A DNA stretch of 64,000 nt, taken from positions 128,001 through 192,000 of the forward strand of contig CAVOHZ010000010.1 in the NCBI GenBank assembly GCA_963695855.1. The letters run 5' to 3'. The notes below the pieces were generated by a model. The model searched no databases. It worked only from the letters and a program-made list of their open reading frames with translations, and was not told the origin of the DNA. Both the position numbers and the translations under genes were made by a program. The stretch comes from an uncultured Nitrososphaerales archaeon (GTDB taxonomy: Archaea; Thermoproteota; Nitrososphaeria; Nitrososphaerales; Nitrososphaeraceae). The stretch's first letter is position 1. Each line of letters opens with the position of its first letter. Shown here piece by piece: positions 12,450 to 55,280 of the stretch.

Positions 12450-12725
12450 TATTTATTTGACTAAACTATAAATATATTAGCAATTCTCATATTTATTAGA
12501 AAAAATTTGTTATATTCTTTTTTTTATATAATATTATATAATTTAGTATTTTTTACTTTTAATATAACGTATATAGATGACTAGAACTCTTGAATGGTAT
12601 GTACGCTAGATTCATCATCACTAGAAAATATTATATTTAATATGTTTATTCTTCTGGCTCTGTAGGTGAAATGTTCGACAGAGCTAACATTCAAGAAGAA
12701 AGCCACTACCAATACTCTTGCAAAT

Positions 12726-13754
12726 ATGTATGCGGCATTAGATTTAGGACAGAAAAACATTCAGGCAGTATTGAAAAATAAAGATGGTAAGATTATAAAG
12801 GAAAATAAAATACAGCGTAATACCAAAACAATACTAGAATTTCTTGATAATAGTAACAAGAATCATAATAATATTGATATTGTAATGGAGTCTGGTTACA
12901 ACTATCAATATCTATATGATCTTTTACAAGATGAAGGTTATAATGTAAAAGTAGCACATCCACTAATGGTCAAGGCAATAGCATATGCTAAAGTCAAGAC
13001 AGATAAAGTAGATGCTAGAATATTAGCAGATCTACTAAGAATGGATATGATACCAGAATGTTATATACCTAATAAAGATATAAGAAATTTACGAGATCTA
13101 GTTAGACGCAGATACTATTTTGTCAGTATTCGAACAATGTTCAAAAACAAAGCACATGTTGAGATGAGTAAAAGATGGTTAGATGCTAATGTGACTAATA
13201 ATATAACAACAACAATGATTAAAAATGATCCATTTTCTAAAAAAGGAAAATGTCATTTACGTTCACTGGGAATACATGCATTAGATGATTGCCTTGATAC
13301 CATAGATTTTCTAGATAGAAAAATAAAAGAGTTGGATACAGAAATAAAGAAATTGGCAATAGAAGATAAATACTCTAAACATCTTATGACAATTCCAGGT
13401 ATATCTTACTATGCAGCTCTTCTAATATCAAGCGAGATAGCAGATATTAACAGGTTTCCAGACTATGAACATCTGTGTTCTTATGCTAGATTAGTACCTG
13501 GTACATATCAATCTGGAAATACATCATTCTCAAAAACAGACAAAAAACAAGGGAGCAAAATGCTAAACTGGATTATGGTACAGTGTACTCATACACATGT
13601 ACGTTATTGCCAATCATCGATAACAGTACATTACAACAAGATAAAGAATAGAAAGAGAAATAACAAAATTGCTATAATTGCAGCAGCAAGAAAATTAATG
13701 CGTGTGATATATGTTATGCTAAAGGAAGATCGTCCCTTTAGACTGGATGAATAA
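12726..13754 (+). CDS. IS110-family transposase/recombinase
   Basis: DEDD residues in ALDLG, VMESG and KTDKVDA; TIPGI; YQSG catalytic Ser; AAARKL. ATG at 12726 preferred over GTG at 12666. Confidence 0.95.
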   Translation: MYAALDLGQKNIQAVLKNKDGKIIKENKIQRNTKTILEFLDNSNKNHNNIDIVMESGYNYQYLYDLLQDEGYNVKVAHPLMVKAIAYAKVKTDKVDARILADLLRMDMIPECYIPNKDIRNLRDLVRRRYYFVSIRTMFKNKAHVEMSKRWLDANVTNNITTTMIKNDPFSKKGKCHLRSLGIHALDDCLDTIDFLDRKIKELDTEIKKLAIEDKYSKHLMTIPGISYYAALLISSEIADINRFPDYEHLCSYARLVPGTYQSGNTSFSKTDKKQGSKMLNWIMVQCTHTHVRYCQSSITVHYNKIKNRKRNNKIAIIAAARKLMRVIYVMLKEDRPFRLDE

Positions 13755-13766
13755 TAATATAGTATA

Positions 13767-13900
13767 GGACCTCTTGGTTTCTTGCATCGTCATATTGTTA
13801 TTATTATATGATAAGTATGATGGATGCCATCTGTAGGTTAGGTCTGGCTACTACTAGCGCAAAGCCACGGTGCACTATTGGTGCGTATGGGAGAATGCTA
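13767..13900 (+). ncRNA. Predicted bridge RNA (seekRNA) of the IS110 element
   Basis: Two stem/internal-loop/hairpin units; loop sequences TGGTTTCT, TCTGTAGGT and ATGGGAGAA match target and donor junctions. RNA ends approximate. Confidence 0.82.
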
Positions 13901-13986
13901 TTATTCATCAGTTAATCATATTAGGAACGAGTATTATATGAACATGGGAGAAACCATCATAGCTAGCAACATTCTACAGTTAATTA

Positions 13987-36577: not shown

Positions 36578-38149
36578 CTAGGGATAGGGAATTGGCAATA
36601 TGAATGGTACTTGTGATGTCGGATTTATTGGTGACTCAGTAGAAGGACGTTGTTCATTAGCAGAACTTAATATTCTAGTATCTTGTTGTTGTTGTTCTTG
36701 TTGTTGTTTTAATTGTTGTTGTTCTTGTTGTTGTTTTAATTGTTGTTGTTGCTTTAGTTTTTGTTGTAGGTGTAATTGTTTAAATTGTTGTTGTTCTTGT
36801 TGTTGTTTCAATTGTTGTTGTTGTTTTAGTTTTTGTTGTAGGTGTAATTGTTTAAATTGTTGTTGTTCTTGTTGTTGTTTTACAGGTTGTTCTTGTTGTT
36901 TTTGTTGCATTATTGCACTACCAGAATTCAATAGTCTAGTATCTTTTTGTTGTTGTTGTTGTTCTTGTTGTTGTTTCAATTGTTGTTGTTGTTTTAGTTT
37001 TTGTTGTAGGTGTAATTGTTTAAATTGTTGTTGTTCTTGTTGTTGTTTTACAGGTTGTTCTTGTTGTTTTTGTTGCATTATTGCACTACCAGAATTCAAT
37101 AGTCTAGTATCTTTTTGTTGTTGTTGTTCTTGTTGTTGTTTTACAGGTTGTTCTTGTTGTTTTTGTTGCATTATTGCACTACCAGAATTCAATAGTCTAG
37201 TATCTTTTTGTTGTTGTTGTTCTTGTTGTTGTTTTACAGGTTGTTCTTGTTGTTTTTGTTGCATTATTGCACTACCAGAATTCAATAGTCTAGTATCTTT
37301 TTGTTGTTGTTGTTGTTCTTGTTGTTGTTTTAATTGTTGTTGTTGTTTTATTTTTTCTTGTAGTTGTTGTAGAGGTTGTTCTTGTTGTTGTTTTAATTGT
37401 TGTTGTTGTTTTATTTTTTCTTGTAGTTGTTGTAGAGGTTGTTCTTGTTGTTGTTGCATTACTGCTGAAGTACTATCTGTAGATTTTATATCAGATTGAC
37501 TTACTTCTTTTGCATCATTAGTTACATCAGCACTGTCATTGCCAAGTACTTCTGTTGTATTAATATTGTCATTTGTGAAAGTCTCTGAATCAGTATCGTG
37601 GGATGGACTAAGATAGTGGTTCTCATTATTACATTTAACTATTATTTTTGTGTCTGATCCTAAATAGTATACTTGAGTATTTCCAGGATTGCTATTGAAT
37701 TCTTCAGATGAAATTAATTGCGTAGCCTCATCATTAGCCTTTTTTAAAGCTAATGCATTATCTAAAATAGGTTTAATGGTATCAATATCTTCTATTCCAT
37801 CAGCATTGATATTTCGATTGTTGCAGTTTACTATTTTTACTATTTTTACCTTTTTAATTGGTTTATCGTAATCTTCTTCATATTTTGTGTATGAACCATA
37901 TTTGTCTGATTCTTCCATGTAATCATCATATTTCTCTTTATCTTTTCCTTCATGTTTTTTATAATCTATACTAGAATCATAGCCATAATCATCATATCGT
38001 TTTTCTTTGTATTTTCCATCATCTCTTTCCTGATACTTATCCTTTTCTTCCTTGGCATCTGCGTCAATAACTGATATTGATGCTGTCGTAATAGTGCCAG
38101 TCAATAAGATCGCTATTAAAAGTACGGTAGTAAACGTCGACTTTTGCAT
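36578..38149 (-). CDS. Secreted Gln-rich protein, two-Cys Asn-rich family
   Basis: Signal peptide (MQKSTF..ADA), Y/D/K-rich segment, NCNNRNINADG...VKCNNEN, long poly-Q repeats. Confidence 0.8.
   Translation of the reverse strand: MQKSTFTTVLLIAILLTGTITTASISVIDADAKEEKDKYQERDDGKYKEKRYDDYGYDSSIDYKKHEGKDKEKYDDYMEESDKYGSYTKYEEDYDKPIKKVKIVKIVNCNNRNINADGIEDIDTIKPILDNALALKKANDEATQLISSEEFNSNPGNTQVYYLGSDTKIIVKCNNENHYLSPSHDTDSETFTNDNINTTEVLGNDSADVTNDAKEVSQSDIKSTDSTSAVMQQQQEQPLQQLQEKIKQQQQLKQQQEQPLQQLQEKIKQQQQLKQQQEQQQQQKDTRLLNSGSAIMQQKQQEQPVKQQQEQQQQKDTRLLNSGSAIMQQKQQEQPVKQQQEQQQQKDTRLLNSGSAIMQQKQQEQPVKQQQEQQQFKQLHLQQKLKQQQQLKQQQEQQQQQKDTRLLNSGSAIMQQKQQEQPVKQQQEQQQFKQLHLQQKLKQQQQLKQQQEQQQFKQLHLQQKLKQQQQLKQQQEQQQLKQQQEQQQQDTRILSSANEQRPSTESPINPTSQVPFILPIPYP
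36670..37460. repeat. Gln-coding composite tandem repeats
   Basis: (TTG)n tracts with recurring KDTRLLNSGSAIMQQKQQEQPVK and FKQLHLQQKLK units. Confidence 0.9.
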
Positions 38150-39343
38150 ATTGACAGTAGGATTATCACATTTATTTAGAGTGTGCATCATTGTAATATT
38201 ATTTTACTCTATTTCTTGCCATCAGTTAATTGTTATTATTTATTGTTTCAAGATTATGATGAATAACAATCTTTATTTTAAAGCATAATTTTTAAAATAA
38301 TACTGTTAGAAAGGTTTTTTTGGCCCTGTTAACTTAAGGATTAAAGTAGTTCTACATTCTACTTTTCTATTATGTTCTGTGCTCAATTTTTCATAGGTTT
38401 TTCGATTTATTTAATTAACTTTCCTTAAATCAACATCCATGAAAATCTATCTGTATGCTGGTTATCTTTTTTATCCTGTTTAGCCATATTTTGTTGCGTT
38501 TTTCTATCTATTAAGCATTGTTAACAATAGCCTCCGCTATATATGGCATCCTTGTTCTCTGATGTAGTCGTATTGTTGTTTTTGTTGTCTAATTATCTTT
38601 CTTTTTCTTGAGATCCAATCTTGTTCAGTCTCTCCAGTTTCTGTTCATATCTAGTCCTGTTCATGTATCTATACGATTGGTGTCTTGTTAGCATGTACCA
38701 TATTATAACAAGCACCTCCTTTGCTGTTGCAACTATTGCTTTCCCATGTCCCTTTCTCTGTTTGATTCTTTCATAGAATGTTCTCATGTGACGGTCATGT
38801 CTTACTGCGGATAATGAACACTGTACCAGTATCCATCTCAATAGTGGTGATCCCTGTTTGGTTATTCTACCTGTTTTTGTTTTTCCAGATGATTCTCTTG
38901 TTGATGGAGATAATCCTGCATAACTAACAAGTTTCCATGGTGTTGCAAATCTTTTGATATCCACTATTTCTGTTGATATCAGCATTGCAGAAAATACGTC
39001 TATTCCTGTCATGCTGAGAAGTATCTTTACATCTTGACTATCCTTCCATGCGTATTTTGCTATCTCTTTTGATACTATTTCTATCTGGTTATCTATCGAT
39101 TCTATGGATGTTAGTGTTGTATTCAGTATTATCCTGTCTATTGGTGAAACTGAGAGTGATTTTAGCCACTCAGTTCCCGATCTACCGAATATGTCTGTCA
39201 GCTCTGTTCTGTACTCATATTTGTCTAAAATAGCATGTACCTTGTTTGCAAGTTTTGTCTTGGTTCTAGACAAGACTATTCTATGTCTGACCAGACTTCT
39301 TTTTTCTCTGAATTCCTTTCTTTACAGGTACATATGACTCGTA

Positions 39344-40373
39344 TGCTCTGTTGCATGATTCATTAATTTATTGATAATAATTCTGTGGTTGTAGTCTTTT
39401 ATGTTGTGGATATAAACAAATTGTATAATGATGCTTTCAACATTATCTCTTTTACCATGTTTGGATATTTAACAGCAGATACATATTCACCAAACATTCT
39501 CTTCATAGAGGAAAAGACAGATTCTACAACCCATCTCTTGCCATAGCTAACGCTATCCTTCCATTTATTAAAATCAGTTTTCTGTTCTACTACTCCAAGA
39601 TTTCTTTTATAGTGATTGTCATTTCTGATTCTAGCATTCTTTCTTACCTTTATTGCTGGTTTAATATTGTTGAATGAAAGAAATTGGAATATCTTGTTGT
39701 TATCGTATGAACCATCTGCTATCACAGTATTTACATCGATATTCTGTTTTCTGACTATATCATGTACGAGTATAGGTAATACTTTTGAATCATGTACTTT
39801 TTCTGTAGTAACGTTTAGAGATAGAATCTTTGCTTTCTTCTCATTCTTTTTTCTACCGCTTATATCTACTGCTACATGAATCTTGAGGTATCCTTTTCTT
39901 TTCTACTTTTACAGTGCCACTTCTTATGACGCATCCACTCTCCTCTATTTGTTACCTTTATTCCTGTAGAATCAATTGCTATAATAACATCATTACCTCC
40001 TAATTTGTTGTTGTTAACATGAATATCAAGTTTGTTTATTCTTCTATCTATTGTACTATAATCGGGAATTGATGGGATTTTATTTTCAGCATGAGCTCTT
40101 ACTATACCTTCAGTCTGCCTGAATGGAAGATGAAAATACACTCTTGCATATCCAAGTAATAAGAGAAATGAGTTGGGATAGTGATGTGGTTCTCCAACTT
40201 TACCTTTGTTCATTTCTTTCAATTCATTATCCCAATTATCTATAATATCAAATCCAAGCATAATTTCTCCACGCTTAACAAGAGATTGATTATATTGTCT
40301 CCAGTTTAACACATAATATGAATATAACAGGTTAGCTAAATAGATTAGCAGTAGTGAATCATGCAACAAACTA
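39344..40373 (-). mobile_element. IS5-family (IS903-like) insertion sequence
   Basis: TIR core TGTTGCATGATTC / GAATCATGCAACA; target duplication GACTCGTA at 39336-39343 and 40374-40381. Confidence 0.9.
39399..40312 (-). pseudogene. IS5/IS903-like transposase, frameshift near 39900
   Basis: WRQYNQSLVKRGE, AIDSTGIKVTNRGEW, IADGSYD and YGKRWVVESVFSSMKR in two frames. Confidence 0.88.
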
Positions 40374-40749
40374 GACTCGTATACCAATCAATCCAGTTCT
40401 CAGCAGATCAGATAGTATACATGCGTCAAGTTTATCTGATTTTATCTTTGCTTGTGCTATTATCTTTGTTCTGTATGGATTTGCTAGTACTGTATCTATT
40501 CCATTATCTTCCAGCGTATCATGTATTCTCATCCACATGTTTCCTGTAGATTCCAGTACTGCATTACATTTTTTTGTTCCATGATTGTGTATCCTTTCAA
40601 TCAGTTCTAATATTCCATCAGAATTGTTACCAAAGAAGAATTCATTCAGTGTCTTGCCTTTATCATCTTTTAGTGCTGCCCTGCATTTTCTCTTTCCAAC
40701 ATCTATTCCAAGATGATTCAATTATTTTTATTCACCTTCTTTTTTTATT

Positions 40750-40874
40750 TGTTGGCTAACAGGTGGCAAACATCCATCCACCCTCGAAGGGTACTATGAT
40801 AGCCACTTCACAGATACGGTTCAGTCAGAGCCTCACTCTCATACGGAGTATGTTAATTTTGAACCTAGCCAACA
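40750..40874 (-). ncRNA. Predicted bridge RNA of the second IS110 element (upstream of transposase)
   Basis: 9-bp closing stem TGTTGGCTA/TAGCCAACA encloses two stem/internal-loop/hairpin units whose loops match the element junctions. Confidence 0.85.
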
Positions 40875-41695
40875 TACAGTAATGAAACAGACTAAAAGAT
40901 TTTCATATCGTCAGAGCCCTAGAAAGACTAGTAAATTAATTTTTATATAAATAATTATTTCTCTTAATAAAATAAATTTGACTAGATGGCTATAACGGCC
41001 AACATATGCATGGATAATATAATGATATAGATTTTGAAAGATATCAAAGGTAGAAATAGTCTCAGATTATATGGTATATTTAATGGATAAAGGATGTGTA
41101 CTTTGTATTTTTAAACTGTGATCTTTTACTAACTTTGCAAAATTTATTTATTTATGAGAAGTGATCATAATATACAGTTCAAAAAAGGGTTTTGATAAAA
41201 ATTGATTAGAATCCAAGATTATTACTATTTTGAAATCAATTCATTATTATCTCATCATTCATAGTTAATATAATGAAAAAGAACAGGATAACATGATCTT
41301 TCTGGATATAATGTATATATAATATTTATATATCGAACCAAAAAATTTGTATAAATATTATTGTTAGAACAAAAAGATGAGATTACAGCAAGACAAATAT
41401 CCTCTATGACTACTAGATCACTTTTAAAAATTGAGATACATTACATCATATTTATTTTTCTCTATCCTTATTGTGTACCCATTTTGACGTAATAAATATT
41501 GTTTTAATGTGTGTACGCTATGTAATTTGAATACCAGAAAGTATAAGACAATAAATTTTTCAACCTATTCCAAAATTAGTAGCTTAATAAATAATTACTA
41601 CTAACTTGATAATAAAACTATGGAATATAAAAAAAGAAAAAAGAAAGATCCCTTCATAGTTCAATAATATTCTTTAGCCTACAGCCATTCCCGTC

Positions 41696-42767: not shown

Positions 42768-43241
42768 CTAGTTTACGGATCCAGCGGTCACGGAATTTTC
42801 ATTTACGGATCCAACGGTCCCGAAATTTTCATTGTCGCCAAAGTTAATACATATATTTTCAATATCAAGTTCTAATCCACTGCCACCATTGCTCTCTATT
42901 CCTACATCATTACTCCCAATAGCAAATGATGCATCCATTTCTTCTCCTATTGAATTGATATTTTCATCACTTGATGCTGCTGAATTGGTATCTGCCTGTG
43001 TTAGCATAGAACTAAGTATTGAAGCCTCAAATTCTGAAAATTCGCCAATATTGTAATTGCTAACAGAACATTCGGCTTTATTGTATTTCCAACCTTGTTT
43101 CTCATACTTCATGTCTTTCTCATACTTCCTGTCTTCGTCTGCAAATGCAAGAGAGGGAGAAGCTATTGCAATAACTCCTGCCACTAATACAGCTGCTAAA
43201 AAAATTGAACTACTTTTGTGTAATTTGCTGTTGTTGTTCAT
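42768..43241 (-). CDS. Secreted two-Cys Asn-rich family protein
   Basis: MNNNSKLHKSSSIFLAAVLVAGVIAIASPSLAFA leader; ECSVSNYNI..NICINFGDNENF. Confidence 0.78.
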   Translation of the reverse strand: MNNNSKLHKSSSIFLAAVLVAGVIAIASPSLAFADEDRKYEKDMKYEKQGWKYNKAECSVSNYNIGEFSEFEASILSSMLTQADTNSAASSDENINSIGEEMDASFAIGSNDVGIESNGGSGLELDIENICINFGDNENFGTVGSVNENSVTAGSVN

Positions 43242-43827
43242 TGTTAGATAAGAATGAACATACATATATTTGAAATACGAATGATTAGTAACTACTTTTT
43301 GAAGCTATTTTTCTAATTGTTGATTTTTCATAAATAAATTTGATAAGATAATCAGAGAAATTTATCTTTATTTTATTTTTAACAATTAAAAGTATTTAAT
43401 AAAAACCTGTAGCCAGAAAATAAAAAAGGAAAACTAGTAGAATGTTAGATTACATTCATCTTATAATCATTAAAGCTTAGTTATTTTGGATATATATAAT
43501 ATCATTCTTTCATTTTTTAATCAACTTCTTTAGAAAATATAGTATATATTTTCTATCTTTGTTATAAGCAATTTAATAGAGTTGAGTTCAACAACAAAAA
43601 CATGTTTAGATATATATCAGAAACACAGAACTTTGTTTTGTTTAGACAAATTCAAAATAGAAATGTTGACAACTACCAACTTGAATGACAGTTTCATATA
43701 TTAGGAATGCAATATTTTTTTATTTATAAACCGTATATTGTAGAAATCTTTGTATAATTTCCGTAGCCATCCATATTTTACTTTGACCTATAACGATTAT
43801 TGACGCATTGGAAATATCTTAAAATTT

Positions 43828-44195
43828 GGCCCTGTTAAGTTATGGATAAAGTAATAGATATGTTCTACTTTTTTTATATTATGTTCTGTGCTCAATTTCA
43901 GAAGAATTTTGCCTTGTTGCACAAGTCATTTAGATAATCATTTATCTCTGTCTTGCAATACTAATTGATAATTATGTAATGACTATACTCTGGAACCAAT
44001 TATACAACGATACCTTCAGCATTACCTCCCTTACTATATTTTCAAATCTAATATAATAGTAGTAACATATTCTCCAAACATTCTCTTGATACAAGAGAAG
44101 ATAGTTTCTACAATCCATCTCTAGCGATAGCTAACGTTATCCTTCCATTGTTGTAGAACAGTTTTCTGTGATTGTACAGCCTTGTTTCTGAGATA
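43828..44195. mobile_element. IS6-MITE left end abutting an IS903-like transposase C-terminal remnant
   Basis: 43828-43898 resembles 38322-38388; TIR-like GCCTTGTTGCA at 43911; minus-strand WKDNVSY..RWIVETIFSCIKRMFGEYV. Confidence 0.7.
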
Positions 44196-45038: not shown

Positions 45039-45771
45039 GGTTCTTTTAAGTTAAGCAGCAAAAGCTATAGATAGGCATGTTCTCTTTATGGTATGAAAGT
45101 TAGATTTGAAAGAAAACAGAACAGAAGGTCCACTTTTATCACAGTGTATTTTCTTTATATCTATGCTTTCTTTATACTTGATCTAAGTTTAAGAAATATT
45201 TCCAAGGCATTAGTGATGTTTAGAGATGAGAAGAGAAGTTATGCTTCTGTTTGGAACTGGATTCAAAGGTTTTGATCCTCAGATCTATAAAAGAAAAACA
45301 GTGCCTGCTTTTATAATAGACGAATCACTTATTCAATCAGGTAAGCAGTATTTCTGGCTATGGATATATGTATCCAACCAATTCACAGTTCAGTGCTTAG
45401 AATATACATTCAAAGGGAAGAAATATTTGATGATTGCTGAAAAATTTATTGGATCTACTGTATGAAACCATGGAAAACATATTGTATACACAGAGATGGA
45501 GGTACATGACATGATGAAGCTTGTAATGTCTTGAGATTAAAACATTATTTAGATTCTGCGTTAGAGAAAAGTTATATGGAAATACTCAATCGGTAATTTA
45601 AGGACAGAATAGAGAGTTTTGATGACTAGTATCCACTTATGCAAGAGGAATGTAATCTATTACAGGTACATAACGAGATACAATACTTTGTATCCATGTG
45701 TAATGATACAATAACAAATAATAATGATTTTGAGTTAGAGGAAGTAAATATTGCCTTAAATTAACAGAGCT
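45039..45771 (+). mobile_element. Degraded IS6-family element
   Basis: Ends GGTTCTTTTAAGTTAAG ... CCTTAAATTAACAGAGCT; fragments RSYASVWNWIQRF, FIIDESLIQSGKQYFWLW, DGGT, FKDRIESFDD. Confidence 0.8.
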
Positions 45772-46101: not shown

Positions 46102-46722
46102 TTAGTCTTCTTCGCCTACGAATCCACCGAAGGTGTTATCAGCCCAGTTGATGCATATATTTTTGATGTGAATGCTTAATCCACCATCAGATAACGAACC
46201 TAACAACTGTGGTGAAGTTAGTTCTGAAGGTAAATCTAGTTGTTGAGCTGCTGCTGCACCAGGACCTTTCTGTATTTCCTTGGAATTGAATTTATTAATA
46301 TTGAAATTGTTGGCATCACACTTAAAGCCGTCATAATGTGAACTACCATCTCTCTTCTTTTCTTTGTATGGATCATAGGAGTGTTCCTTTTCTTTGTATC
46401 CATCATAGGAGTGTTCCTTTTCTTTGTATGGATCATAGGAGTGTTCCTTTTCTTTGTATCCATCATAGGAGTGTTCCTTTTCTTTGTATGGATCATAGGA
46501 GTGTTCCTTTTCTTTGTATCCATCATAGGAGTGTTCCTTTTCTTTGTATGGATCATAGGAGTGTCTCTTTTCTTTGTAGCCATCATAAGACTTGTATTCT
46601 TTTTCGTATTTTTCAGATTCTGCAAATGCAATAGAGGGAGAAGCTATTGCGATAACTCCTGCCACTAATACAGCTGCCAAAAAGATTGAACTACTTTTGT
46701 GTAATTTGCTGTTGTTGTTCAT
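46102..46722 (-). CDS. Secreted two-Cys Asn-rich family protein with KEKEHSYD(P/G)Y repeats
   Basis: Leader nearly identical to 42768-43241; KCDANNFNIN..NICINWADNTF. Confidence 0.8.
   Translation of the reverse strand: MNNNSKLHKSSSIFLAAVLVAGVIAIASPSIAFAESEKYEKEYKSYDGYKEKRHSYDPYKEKEHSYDGYKEKEHSYDPYKEKEHSYDGYKEKEHSYDPYKEKEHSYDGYKEKEHSYDPYKEKKRDGSSHYDGFKCDANNFNINKFNSKEIQKGPGAAAAQQLDLPSELTSPQLLGSLSDGGLSIHIKNICINWADNTFGGFVGEED
46358..46590. repeat. 30-bp coding repeat with alternating variants (60-bp higher-order unit)
   Basis: TTTCTTTGTATGGATCATAGGAGTGTTCCT alternates with TTTCTTTGTATCCATCATAGGAGTGTTCCT. Confidence 0.9.
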
Positions 46723-47028
46723 TGTTAGATAAGAATGAACATACATATATTTGAAATACGAATGATTAGTAACTACTTTTTGAAGCTATTTTTCTAATTG
46801 TTGATTTTTCATAAATAAATTTGATAAGATAAAAAGAAAAAATTTTATTTGTTGAGGAGTAGTGAGAACAAACAGAAAAAGATTATAAAAGTATATTATA
46901 AAGAAATTAGAGAGATAAAACAACTAGTACATAGATGCTAGAAAAGAGACATATATACATATTATGACTACAAATTCCCATCAACAACAGTAAGAGTAAC
47001 AATAACAAGCATGACTACTATTACTACC

Positions 47029-55176: not shown

Positions 55177-55280
55177 CGCCGCTGATCAGACTCGAACTGA
55201 TGACCCACTGGTTAACAGCCAGTTAAGCTCCGGAACGAGAAACGCATCGGATTTGCTCTACCATGCTGAGCTACAGCGGC
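55177..55280 (-). tRNA. tRNA-Asn(GUU) with a 30-nt intron at non-canonical position 27/28 (55223-55252)
   Basis: Acceptor GCCGCTG/CAGCGGC, D-stem GCTC/GAGC, anticodon arm ACTGG-CTGTTAA-CCAGT, T-arm ATCAG-TTCGAGT-CTGAT. Confidence 0.92.

Follow-up and report, generated by a model that had tools for sequence, protein, structure and literature searches.

A probable bridge RNA in a broken IS110-family element of a Nitrososphaeraceae archaeon carries guides to an IS6-type terminal repeat

Can an insertion sequence (IS) whose transposase gene is broken still carry the RNA that matches its target? The question is raised by a locus on the minus strand of a 64-kb stretch of DNA (here termed the window; C10:128001-192000, contig CAVOHZ010000010.1) from an uncultured Nitrososphaerales archaeon, an ammonia oxidizer of soil, whose genome (assembly GCA_963695855.1) measures 3.55 Mb at ~31% G+C. 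At 38322-40918, three mobile elements are nested one inside another. The middle one belongs to the IS110 family, and its left end contains a region of 124 nt, in the same sense as the transposase, that we regard as a genuine member of the bridge RNA family, with a probability of about 0.9. An earlier note, made from the letters of the DNA alone, had proposed that the guides of this RNA spell the terminal repeat of an IS6 element; they do, and the 723-bp target elements encode an IS6-family transposase.

The outermost element of the nest is a miniature derivative of an IS6-family element. Its two parts (7 + 112) make 119 bp when rejoined; aligned with the element of that length at C3:364342, they agree with it in 96 of 123 columns. 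At the left junction the minus strand reads GGCTC (40918-40914), TG (40913-40912) and ACGATATG (40911-40904), and at the right junction CATGGA (38441-38436), TG (38435-38434) and TTGATTT (38433-38427), with every coordinate as the earlier note had placed it. The boundaries of the IS110-family element were taken from a comparison of copies, and its span is counted from the right-donor end to the left-donor end plus the core (table 1); copies of it that are not interrupted measure 1,425-1,445 bp. The innermost element is IS5-like and is bracketed by a 9-bp duplication, ATACGAGTC, at 40374-40382 and 39336-39344. Contigs from relatives (X12 and X17), in libraries recorded as RNA, join 39337/39341 to 40387 and omit it.

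Table 1. Features of the nested elements, the bridge RNA and related elements; positions are those of the window unless a contig is named.
Feature	Position	Strand	Remarks
[quoted passage not shown]
Target loop, 5' side, AAAUUAACA (AAAUUAA-CA)	40851..40859	-	reverse complement of core and right flank
Target loop, 3' side, GGCUCUGAC (GGCUC-UG-AC)	40824..40832	-	identical to left flank, core and first 2 element bases
Donor loop, 5' side, UAUC	40798..40801	-	complementary to GATA, element bases 3-6
Donor loop, 3' side, AUGGAUGUU (AUGGA-UG-UU)	40769..40777	-	identical to element right end, core and first 2 right-flank bases
Outermost element, 119-bp IS6-derived miniature element	40918-40912 (GGCTCTG) and 38433-38322	-	
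Left target half GGCTC	40914..40918	-	start of the IS6-type terminal repeat, here interrupted, of the 119-bp miniature element
Core TG, left copy	40912..40913	-	TG on both sides of the element
Rest of 119-bp miniature element	38322..38433	-	right target half TTGATTT 38433-38427; other terminal repeat 38322-38338
IS110-family element, 2,478 bp	38434-40911	-	length includes the nested IS5-like element; boundaries from copy comparison
Subterminal inverted repeat, left arm ATGAAAATCT	40897..40906	-	perfect 10-bp complement of 38439-38448
Right end	38434..38448	-	repeat arm AGATTTTCAT 38448-38439; left-donor CATGGA 38441-38436; core TG 38435-38434
Transposase, N-terminal fragment (DEDD/RuvC-like), TTG start	40371..40721	-	PF01548, E = 1e-18
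Transposase, C-terminal part (Transposase_20, conserved Ser)	38593..39335	-	PF02371, E = 3.9e-22
Nested IS5-like element (DDE_Tnp_1), 1,029 bp	39345-40373	-	inside the IS110 transposase gene
Degenerate IS6-like copy, 732 bp	45039..45770	+	right terminal repeat 45754-45770, exact 9-nt match to loop-1 5' guide
Short transposase-less elements	C10:1354507, C10:1746459(-), C10:1407617, C8:114019(-), C8:187905, C3:465564, C3:37676(-)		

The transposase gene is broken in three places, by two 4-nt insertions (near 40390-40393 and 39320-39323 when compared with an intact paralogue) and by the IS5-like insertion of 1,029 bp; in agreement with the second of the small insertions, 4 nt are absent at 39316 from the relatives' contigs X12 and X17. 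Its assignment to the IS110 family rests on a DEDD N-terminal domain followed by a Transposase_20 C-terminal domain with its Ser. The intact paralogue scores 223 bits against the NCBIfam model NF033542, 'IS110 family RNA-guided transposase' (cutoff 140), and aligns to the recombinase of IS621 (8wt6, E = 5.8e-9) and also to ISCro4 (9t56). The GID..., ...ES/ATG..., D..D and ES motifs line up with IS621, a match of motifs rather than of the residue numbers in the paper. Insertion has duplicated the core TG only, the element lacks terminal inverted repeats, and the flanks form one site family, as in site-specific elements of this family; TG stands at the left junction in 49 of the 52 elements tabulated below. 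The left end spans 190 nt and the right end ~159 nt, and the 10-bp subterminal inverted repeat is kept in nearly all copies. A short right end and a subterminal repeat of 2-3 bp, a trait of the IS110 group, are not found here, where the right end has ~159 nt and the repeat is perfect over 10 bp; these lengths are a subgroup trait rather than a family criterion.

The genome holds five full-length copies by blastn, including that in the window, plus a few fragments. The copy at C8:374880 is frameshifted, and its left end is 100% identical to that of the window copy over 197 nt, in keeping with the earlier claim of a broken transposase beside an intact RNA. The copy at C8:490534 has decayed, and those at C10:929324 and C8:48399 retain an intact open reading frame (ORF) of 356 aa (C10:929531-930598 in the former), with 85-88% protein identity to the fragments of the window copy. 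The earlier note had staked its reading on where intact copies insert, and both occupy the same kind of site: GGCTC-TG / TG-TTAAGTTAAGG at C10:929324 and AGCTC-TG / TG-TTAAGTTAAGG at C8:48399. Their loop 1 reads AAACUUAACA, and the sole guide base by which it differs from the window copy matches the sole differing base of the flank. In wider searches, proteins matching at E <= 1e-20 were present in 11 of 41 genomes (this one counted), and a scan of species-representative genomes gave 29 loci at 59-93% identity, one of them in a Bathyarchaeia record. A covariance model of the RNA (R1, built from 29 RNA regions) finds matches in 14 of 25 genomes of the genus. The closest public relatives are recorded under Nitrososphaeraceae / Candidatus Nitrosocosmicus, and the insertion sequence is common in this Nitrososphaeraceae genus.

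What, then, is the structure of the RNA? In the minimum free energy fold of the 190-nt left end, two modules, each composed of a stem, an internal loop and a hairpin, lie within a closing stem. Loop 1 is carried on the stem GGUUCA 40865-40860 / UGAACC 40823-40818, and loop 2 on the stem GUGGC 40806-40802 / GCCAC 40767-40763, just as the earlier note had drawn them. The consensus fold of 29 sequences (alignment A1, from which the degenerate copies L010 and L069 were left out) has the same layout, and its two internal loops thus sit in a conserved secondary structure, which the earlier note had made a test of its proposal. Across the 26 consensus pairs, 97.6% of cells are paired, and eight pairs have changed on both sides; one is A-U in 17 sequences and G-C in 12, another C-G in 16 and U-A in 12. 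None of 500 shuffles attains the observed pairing and compensation, and partner registers that are slid pair at only 26-43%. Two U-G pairs are invariant or nearly so (29/29 and 28/29 sequences), and since these would be A-C on the opposite strand, the RNA corresponds to the transposase-sense strand.

Each internal loop holds two guides, one on either side. In loop 1, AAAUUAACA pairs with the window site through one rU:dG wobble and is exact to the site at 45758; on the other side, the guide for the left target half GGCTC occupies 40828-40832. The 9-mer GGCTCTGAC occurs exactly twice in the window, at the left junction (40910-40918) and in loop 1 (40824-40832), against ~0.10 expected, and none of 100 shuffles gives two. 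Its counterpart ATGGATGTT occurs five times against 0.92 expected, including the right junction (38432-38440) and loop 2 (40769-40777). Both exact 9-nt matches had been reported in the earlier note and were recovered here. The note also took the 5' side of loop 2, which reads UAUCAU (40801-40796), as a donor guide; UAUC stood up to comparison, but the remaining AU does not behave as a guide across relatives.

Together, the guides of loop 1 spell a 14-bp site, GGCTC-TG-TTAATTT (GGCTCTGTTAATTT). It makes up the first (outer) 14 bp in the terminal inverted repeat that bounds 723-bp IS6-family elements, as well as the 119-bp miniatures derived from them. The genome contains 67 uninterrupted sites of the form GG..CTGTTAA.TTAAG, where the repeat reads GGCTCTGTTAA.TTAAG; they show that GGCTC is part of the target and not of the IS110-family element. 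The sites bound elements of 720-734 bp (with identical 8-bp flanks in 5/8) and elements of 119 bp. A 219-aa ORF within the longer elements matches PF13610 (38.5 bits, cutoff 27) and the NCBIfam IS6 model NF033587 over positions 1-200/202 (E = 3.3e-29), its 102 bits lying below the curated cutoff of 125. An IS6/IS240-type DDE transposase, a length of ~0.7-0.9 kb, short terminal inverted repeats and an 8-bp duplication place these elements in the IS6 family. In the window, GCTCTGTTAATTT occurs exactly once, at 45758-45770 (-), at the end of a degenerate IS6-like copy. That end, which the earlier note had called exact, reads aGCTCTGTTAATTT: the AAAUUAA-CA guide is indeed exact there, but the base before GCTC is A and not G, and 13 of the 14 positions of the guides' site match. 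Exact free sites number three in the genome for the window guides and six for the guides of the intact copies. Since the site is the outer 14 bp of an IS6-family repeat, the IS110 family lives inside the ends of another family.

The loops also change together with the DNA they match. This was examined in a table of 33 long and 19 short elements, 52 in all and each distinct, which come from this genome, from others of the genus and from archaea less closely related; it comprises those copies that keep the left-end motif and both RNA anchors, and ~30 weaker R1 matches were left out. Guides were permuted among elements 20,000 times. Of 260 positions compared between the 3' side of loop 1 and the five bases that precede the core on the left, 234 agree (permutation mean 177); between its 5' side and the seven bases right of the core, 219 of 259 do so (mean 193). 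In loop 2, the 3' side agrees with the right end at 181/185 (mean 169), the 5' side (4 nt) with element bases 3-6 at 203/208 (mean 160), and the two bases after the core with the first two flank bases at 72/74 (mean 61.5). In all five comparisons no permutation (0/20,000) did as well, and wrong-partner controls gave 8/185 and 16/260. Loop 1 therefore covaries with the target flanks on both strands, and loop 2 with the joined ends.

The variants themselves illustrate the same point. Left guides GGTGC, GGCTG, GGTCC, GGCCC, AGTTG, AGTTC, GGGTT and GTTAA are found in guide and flank alike, and the repeat variants of the genome (GGTGC, GGCTG, GGCTC, GGCCC, GGTCC and GGTTC) are largely the same set. 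On the right, the guide AAA[A/C/G]UUAACA adjoins the flank TTAA[T/G/C]TT, and AAAGUGAACA adjoins TTCACTT; among loop-1 guides, AAAAUUAACA is specific to the window, AAACUUAACA marks the intact copies, and AAAGUUAACA also occurs. In loop 2, the 3' side varies with the right end (AUAGA/CATAGA, ACGGG/CACGGG), the 5' side with the left end (UAUA/TATA, UGUC/GACA, UCCU/AGGA), and the terminal dinucleotide UU or UA tracks a flank of TT or TA. One subgroup (L047, L055 and L062-L064, from Nitrososphaeraceae metagenome-assembled genomes, with 62-75% protein identity) has moved to another site, AGTTG-TG-TAAA..., which is found 12 bp further into a related repeat starting with GGCTCTGTTAAC. In this subgroup the left guide is now AGUUG and the dinucleotide of loop 2 is UA, a natural case of retargeting.

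Several results weigh against a bridge RNA, or reduce the weight of the evidence for one. The single-sequence fold, at -45.4 kcal/mol, has a z of only -1.7, 11 of 200 shuffles folding as well, and this energy was for that reason left unused as evidence; the closing stem (helix 1) is without any compensatory change. Against Rfam 15, for which it was not established that a bridge RNA model is included, the window gives a single match at gathering score, one transfer RNA (tRNA); the best matches in 40650-40950, at E up to 10, are unrelated (E = 0.87 and 5.4). The RNA family assignment therefore rests on anatomy. The copies share ancestry, and the permutation counts consequently overstate their independence: when unique combinations are used, the right-end test (31/35) is attained by 1,141 of 20,000 permutations, although the target-side tests still hold, as does the left-end test (20/20,000). 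The right flank is matched exactly (7/7) in only 16 of 37 elements (for short elements 6/14, with 7/14 matching at 6/7), and several elements mismatch their flank; the left flank is exact in 36/52. The earlier note's view that handshake dinucleotides match the recombined products holds in loop 2, but in loop 1 the AC after the core, although it agrees with the start of the element (two bases) in 48 of the 52 (100/104 bases), is matched as well by every permutation (mean 100.1); as AC never varies informatively, it gives no test of the handshake. Finally, coverage of 40652-40878 in RNA libraries comes only from relatives' contigs at 88-95% likeness, including two short X10 contigs on 40652-40810 and 40795-40878, from which transcript, strand and ends cannot be read. 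Four libraries recorded as RNA (soil and plant-associated) contributed, all their pieces being relatives' contigs of under 90% to 99% likeness, with uncovered parts uninformative.

How might such an RNA direct insertion? By homology to IS621, a tetramer of the DEDD/Ser recombinase with its RNA would bring the target and a circular form of the element into pairing, and strands would be exchanged at the TG core. The 5' side of the target module would pair with the transposase-sense strand of core and right flank (7+2 nt), and its 3' side with the opposite strand of left flank and core (5+2 nt), while two further bases of the target loop (AC) would match the end of the incoming element. The donor module would specify the joined ends, CATGGA-TG-ACGATA, through AUGGA-UG and UU on its 3' side and UAUC on its 5' side. 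A B recognition element (BRE)/TATA-like AAAATCTTTTAG ~25 nt upstream of the closing stem could, at a guess, be the promoter, and the window RNA may be transcribed, processed and used in this chemistry, perhaps to this day, with intact recombinases.

The closest known system is IS621 of Escherichia coli, and the comparison that follows relies on the text of two reports (PMC11208160 and PMC11208158). As described there, IS621 shares with the archaeal element a recombinase with the DEDD and Ser parts and both Pfam domains; an RNA whose gene is in the left end, upstream of the transposase and in its sense; target and donor modules, each with stem, internal loop and hairpin; two guides per loop, on opposite DNA strands and overlapping at a 2-nt core; and insertion into a repeated genomic sequence. 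In IS621, the 3'-half guides have on their 3' side two handshake bases, which pair with the non-cognate partner once the strands have been exchanged (PMC11208160/PMC11208158). The archaeal 3'-half guides, GGCUC-UG and AUGGA-UG, are followed in the same position by AC and UU, which match the non-cognate and not the cognate partner.

The two also differ. Going by the same text, the archaeal core is TG rather than CT, and the target is an IS6-type terminal repeat rather than a repetitive extragenic palindromic (REP) sequence. The archaeal guides measure 7+2 and 5+2 nt for the target, and the 5' donor guide has 4 nt and leaves the core uncovered; a closing stem surrounds both modules, the right end has ~159 nt and the host is an archaeon. 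Unlike that of IS621, the archaeal guide in the 5' half binds the right flank on its transposase-sense strand; the loop halves would therefore be swapped relative to the direction of the gene. From the guide table and the papers' text, gene and RNA would appear to be oriented opposite to IS621 relative to the polarity of the site. The subterminal repeat, at 10 bp, is unlike the 2-3 bp that the text of PMC11208160 gives for the IS110 group. It falls within the 7-17 bp range given for the IS1111 group. IS4321 and IS5075, members of the IS110 family, reportedly prefer a site in the terminal inverted repeat of another transposon and are said to have subterminal repeats of 7-17 bp. These are bacterial elements of the IS1111 group with the RNA in the right end, whereas the present element has its RNA in the left end, an archaeal host and IS6-type prey.

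Does the window copy still function, or does it only record the past? The family may use bridge RNAs while this copy is dead, its matches recording the event of its own insertion; we consider this close to an even chance, though slightly short of one. The gene is broken three times, and the nearest copy, which has an identical RNA region, is frameshifted too. Every run listed in a search of sequencing runs holds at most 0.14 of the sampled words, and none contains the exact window sequence as RNA. In IS621, according to the text of PMC11208158, a strong promoter forms only on the excised circle, and no promoter can be assigned in the window copy. Against a mere relic stand the state of the RNA and the company it keeps. 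The 197-nt left end, identical to the copy at C8:374880, has every stem undisrupted, and the element ends and 10-bp subterminal repeats are intact: the gene is dead, but no damage to the sequence is seen in the RNA region, at either end or in the repeats. Because the same genome contains two intact recombinase genes, at 85-88% protein identity, use of the window RNA in trans is possible, and three exact free target sites are available to it. For IS621, function of a bridge RNA in trans has been demonstrated, as PMC11208160 reports in its text. Relatives without a transposase but with their own RNA also appear to have been mobile recently, three copies being 99.7-100% identical.

Two other explanations would dispense with the guide altogether. 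The repeated 9-mers might be signals in the DNA, such as protein-binding sites or remnants of duplicated ends, and it is true that the junctions recur inside the element as exact direct repeats, as end-like internal repeats would, and that an inverted pair, CCTGTTAGCC / GGCTAAACAGG, shows no compensatory variation. But the segments lie in internal loops of helices that are kept by compensatory changes and by strand-specific G-U pairs, one guide in each loop is a reverse complement and not a repeat, and RNA guidance has been experimentally demonstrated for the protein family, which together leave this account very improbable. Mere chance in AT-rich DNA deserves mention since at 31% G+C one often meets short A/T-rich words, AAATTAACA for example, and the 13-mer target with two mismatches occurs six times in the window against 3.9 expected, with no excess. 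Chance is nevertheless scarcely credible in view of the shuffles for GGCTCTGAC (0/100) and of the guide-flank matches of 52 elements, which no permutation reproduced (0/20,000). We therefore retain the bridge RNA as the explanation of the locus. The inverted pair may serve as a protein site or as a further subterminal repeat. Of its two members, CCTGTTAGCC (40757-40766) lies at the 3' arm of the closing stem of the RNA and GGCTAAACAGG (38471-38481) ~40 nt into the right end, where relatives and short elements have kept it. An RNA helix between GGCTAAACAGG of the right end and the 3' arm of the RNA, CCUGUUAGCC, was considered and rejected, as relatives change one side without compensation (judged by eye).

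The short elements merit separate attention. The genome has seven of them, of ~318-355 bp (~335 bp), consisting of a left and a right end without a transposase (table 1), and they are present in at least five other genomes of the genus (L080, L101-L110). Each is composed of a left end with a complete bridge RNA, an A-rich spacer and a right end. The donor loop of these elements (AUAGA, UAUA) fits the ends that they themselves have (CATAGA, ACTATA) and not those of full-length elements (where the pairs are AUGGA/CATGGA and UAUC/GATA); the fit is exact in 12 of the 14 for which both ends were found. The assembly has no head-to-tail junctions, as from circles or tandems, of the long form, and a 14-mer match to such a junction of the short form, at C1:81189, has no element context and was taken as chance. 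The near identity (99.7-100%) of three copies at different loci suggests recent mobilization by a protein supplied in trans. It is tempting, though we would put it at a little under half, to see in the ~335-bp elements minimal RNA-guided mobile elements that have their own guide and borrow the recombinase of full-length copies. They resemble MITEPpu9 of ISPpu9 from Pseudomonas putida, which, by the text of PMC12288879, is also without a transposase, has ends plus a small-RNA gene, and exists in several copies. As that text has it, MITEPpu9 carries Ssr9, a small RNA from downstream of tnp, whereas the bridge RNA of ISPpu9 lies upstream of tnp (PMC12288879); the ~335-bp elements, unlike MITEPpu9, keep a complete two-loop bridge RNA whose donor loop fits their own ends.

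The surroundings contain further elements of the same kinds, the stretch of 38-46 kb being a graveyard of nested mobile elements. The IS5-like element has two ORFs in different frames (DDE_Tnp_1_5 and DDE_Tnp_1), many relatives in the genome at ~70% identity and one 96-99% identical copy, interrupted too, at C10:225112-227132. A further IS6-type repeat, GCCCTGTTAAGTT at 43829-43841 (+), adjoins an IS5-like fragment at 43972-44169. An unrelated second IS110-family element lies at 12656-13968 (+), with identical copies at C10:267178 and C10:1598725. Its 362-aa ORF (12666-13754) is 36% identical to the one studied here, and its ends, a short left one and a right one of ~214 nt, are IS1111-like; the block common to its three copies starts GGCTCTG and continues with the inverted repeat GCTCTGT...ACAGAGC, and its site, too, may be that IS6-type repeat. 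This element probably accounts for the first bridge RNA of the earlier note, which calls the present one the second. Three secreted-looking proteins with long low-complexity repeats (Q-rich QQQEQ.. and YDGYKEKEHS units) are encoded at 36578-38191, 42768-43265 and 46102-46746, all (-), two of them with an identical N-terminal signal-like segment, MYVHSYLTMNNNSKLHKSSSIFLAAVLVAGVIAIASPS. The tRNA gene, at 55177-55280 (-), has 104 nt and aligns with a tRNA model of 71 positions over its full length (46.8 bits); an intron is probably present, as would suit a genome from an archaeon.

Bridge RNAs have been demonstrated by experiment in bacterial IS110 elements, and covariance models predict them for most of the family; the text of PMC11208160 gives predictions in 85.7% of catalogued IS110-group elements, and 662 archaeal IS110 recombinases have been counted (preprint 10.1101/2024.06.21.599552). 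A literature search with the terms used, which left supplementary tables outside its range, found no description of IS110 bridge RNAs in Nitrososphaerales, and for IS110, miniature inverted-repeat transposable elements and bridge RNA in combination only PMC12288879 turned up. The mechanism is already known; the archaeal lineage is new and unusually well documented, although Supplementary Table 5 of PMC11208160 or the cluster database of preprint 10.64898/2026.10.21.760802 may include it already. What might be new to the specialist is the short elements with an RNA of their own, the apparent swap of loop halves and the length of the subterminal repeat, no paper on them having been found by a search that did not cover supplements.

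What the locus contributes is a well-resolved archaeal lineage in which natural variation alone shows the programming rules, with eight left-guide variants and several right-guide variants standing beside matching flanks. Within it, one mobile family has specialized on IS6-type terminal repeats and tracks the variants of the repeat. If the reading of the short elements is true, they would represent natural bridge recombination with the protein in trans and the RNA in cis, in an archaeon, where the loop halves would be swapped throughout the family by comparison with IS621. For engineering, the lineage offers a compact recombinase of 356 aa and an RNA of 124 nt from a mesophilic soil archaeon, with a natural target of 14 bp, and may offer a minimal cargo format of RNA plus ends. 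For annotation, it accounts for the ~335-bp repeats and the nested insertions in Nitrososphaeraceae genomes.

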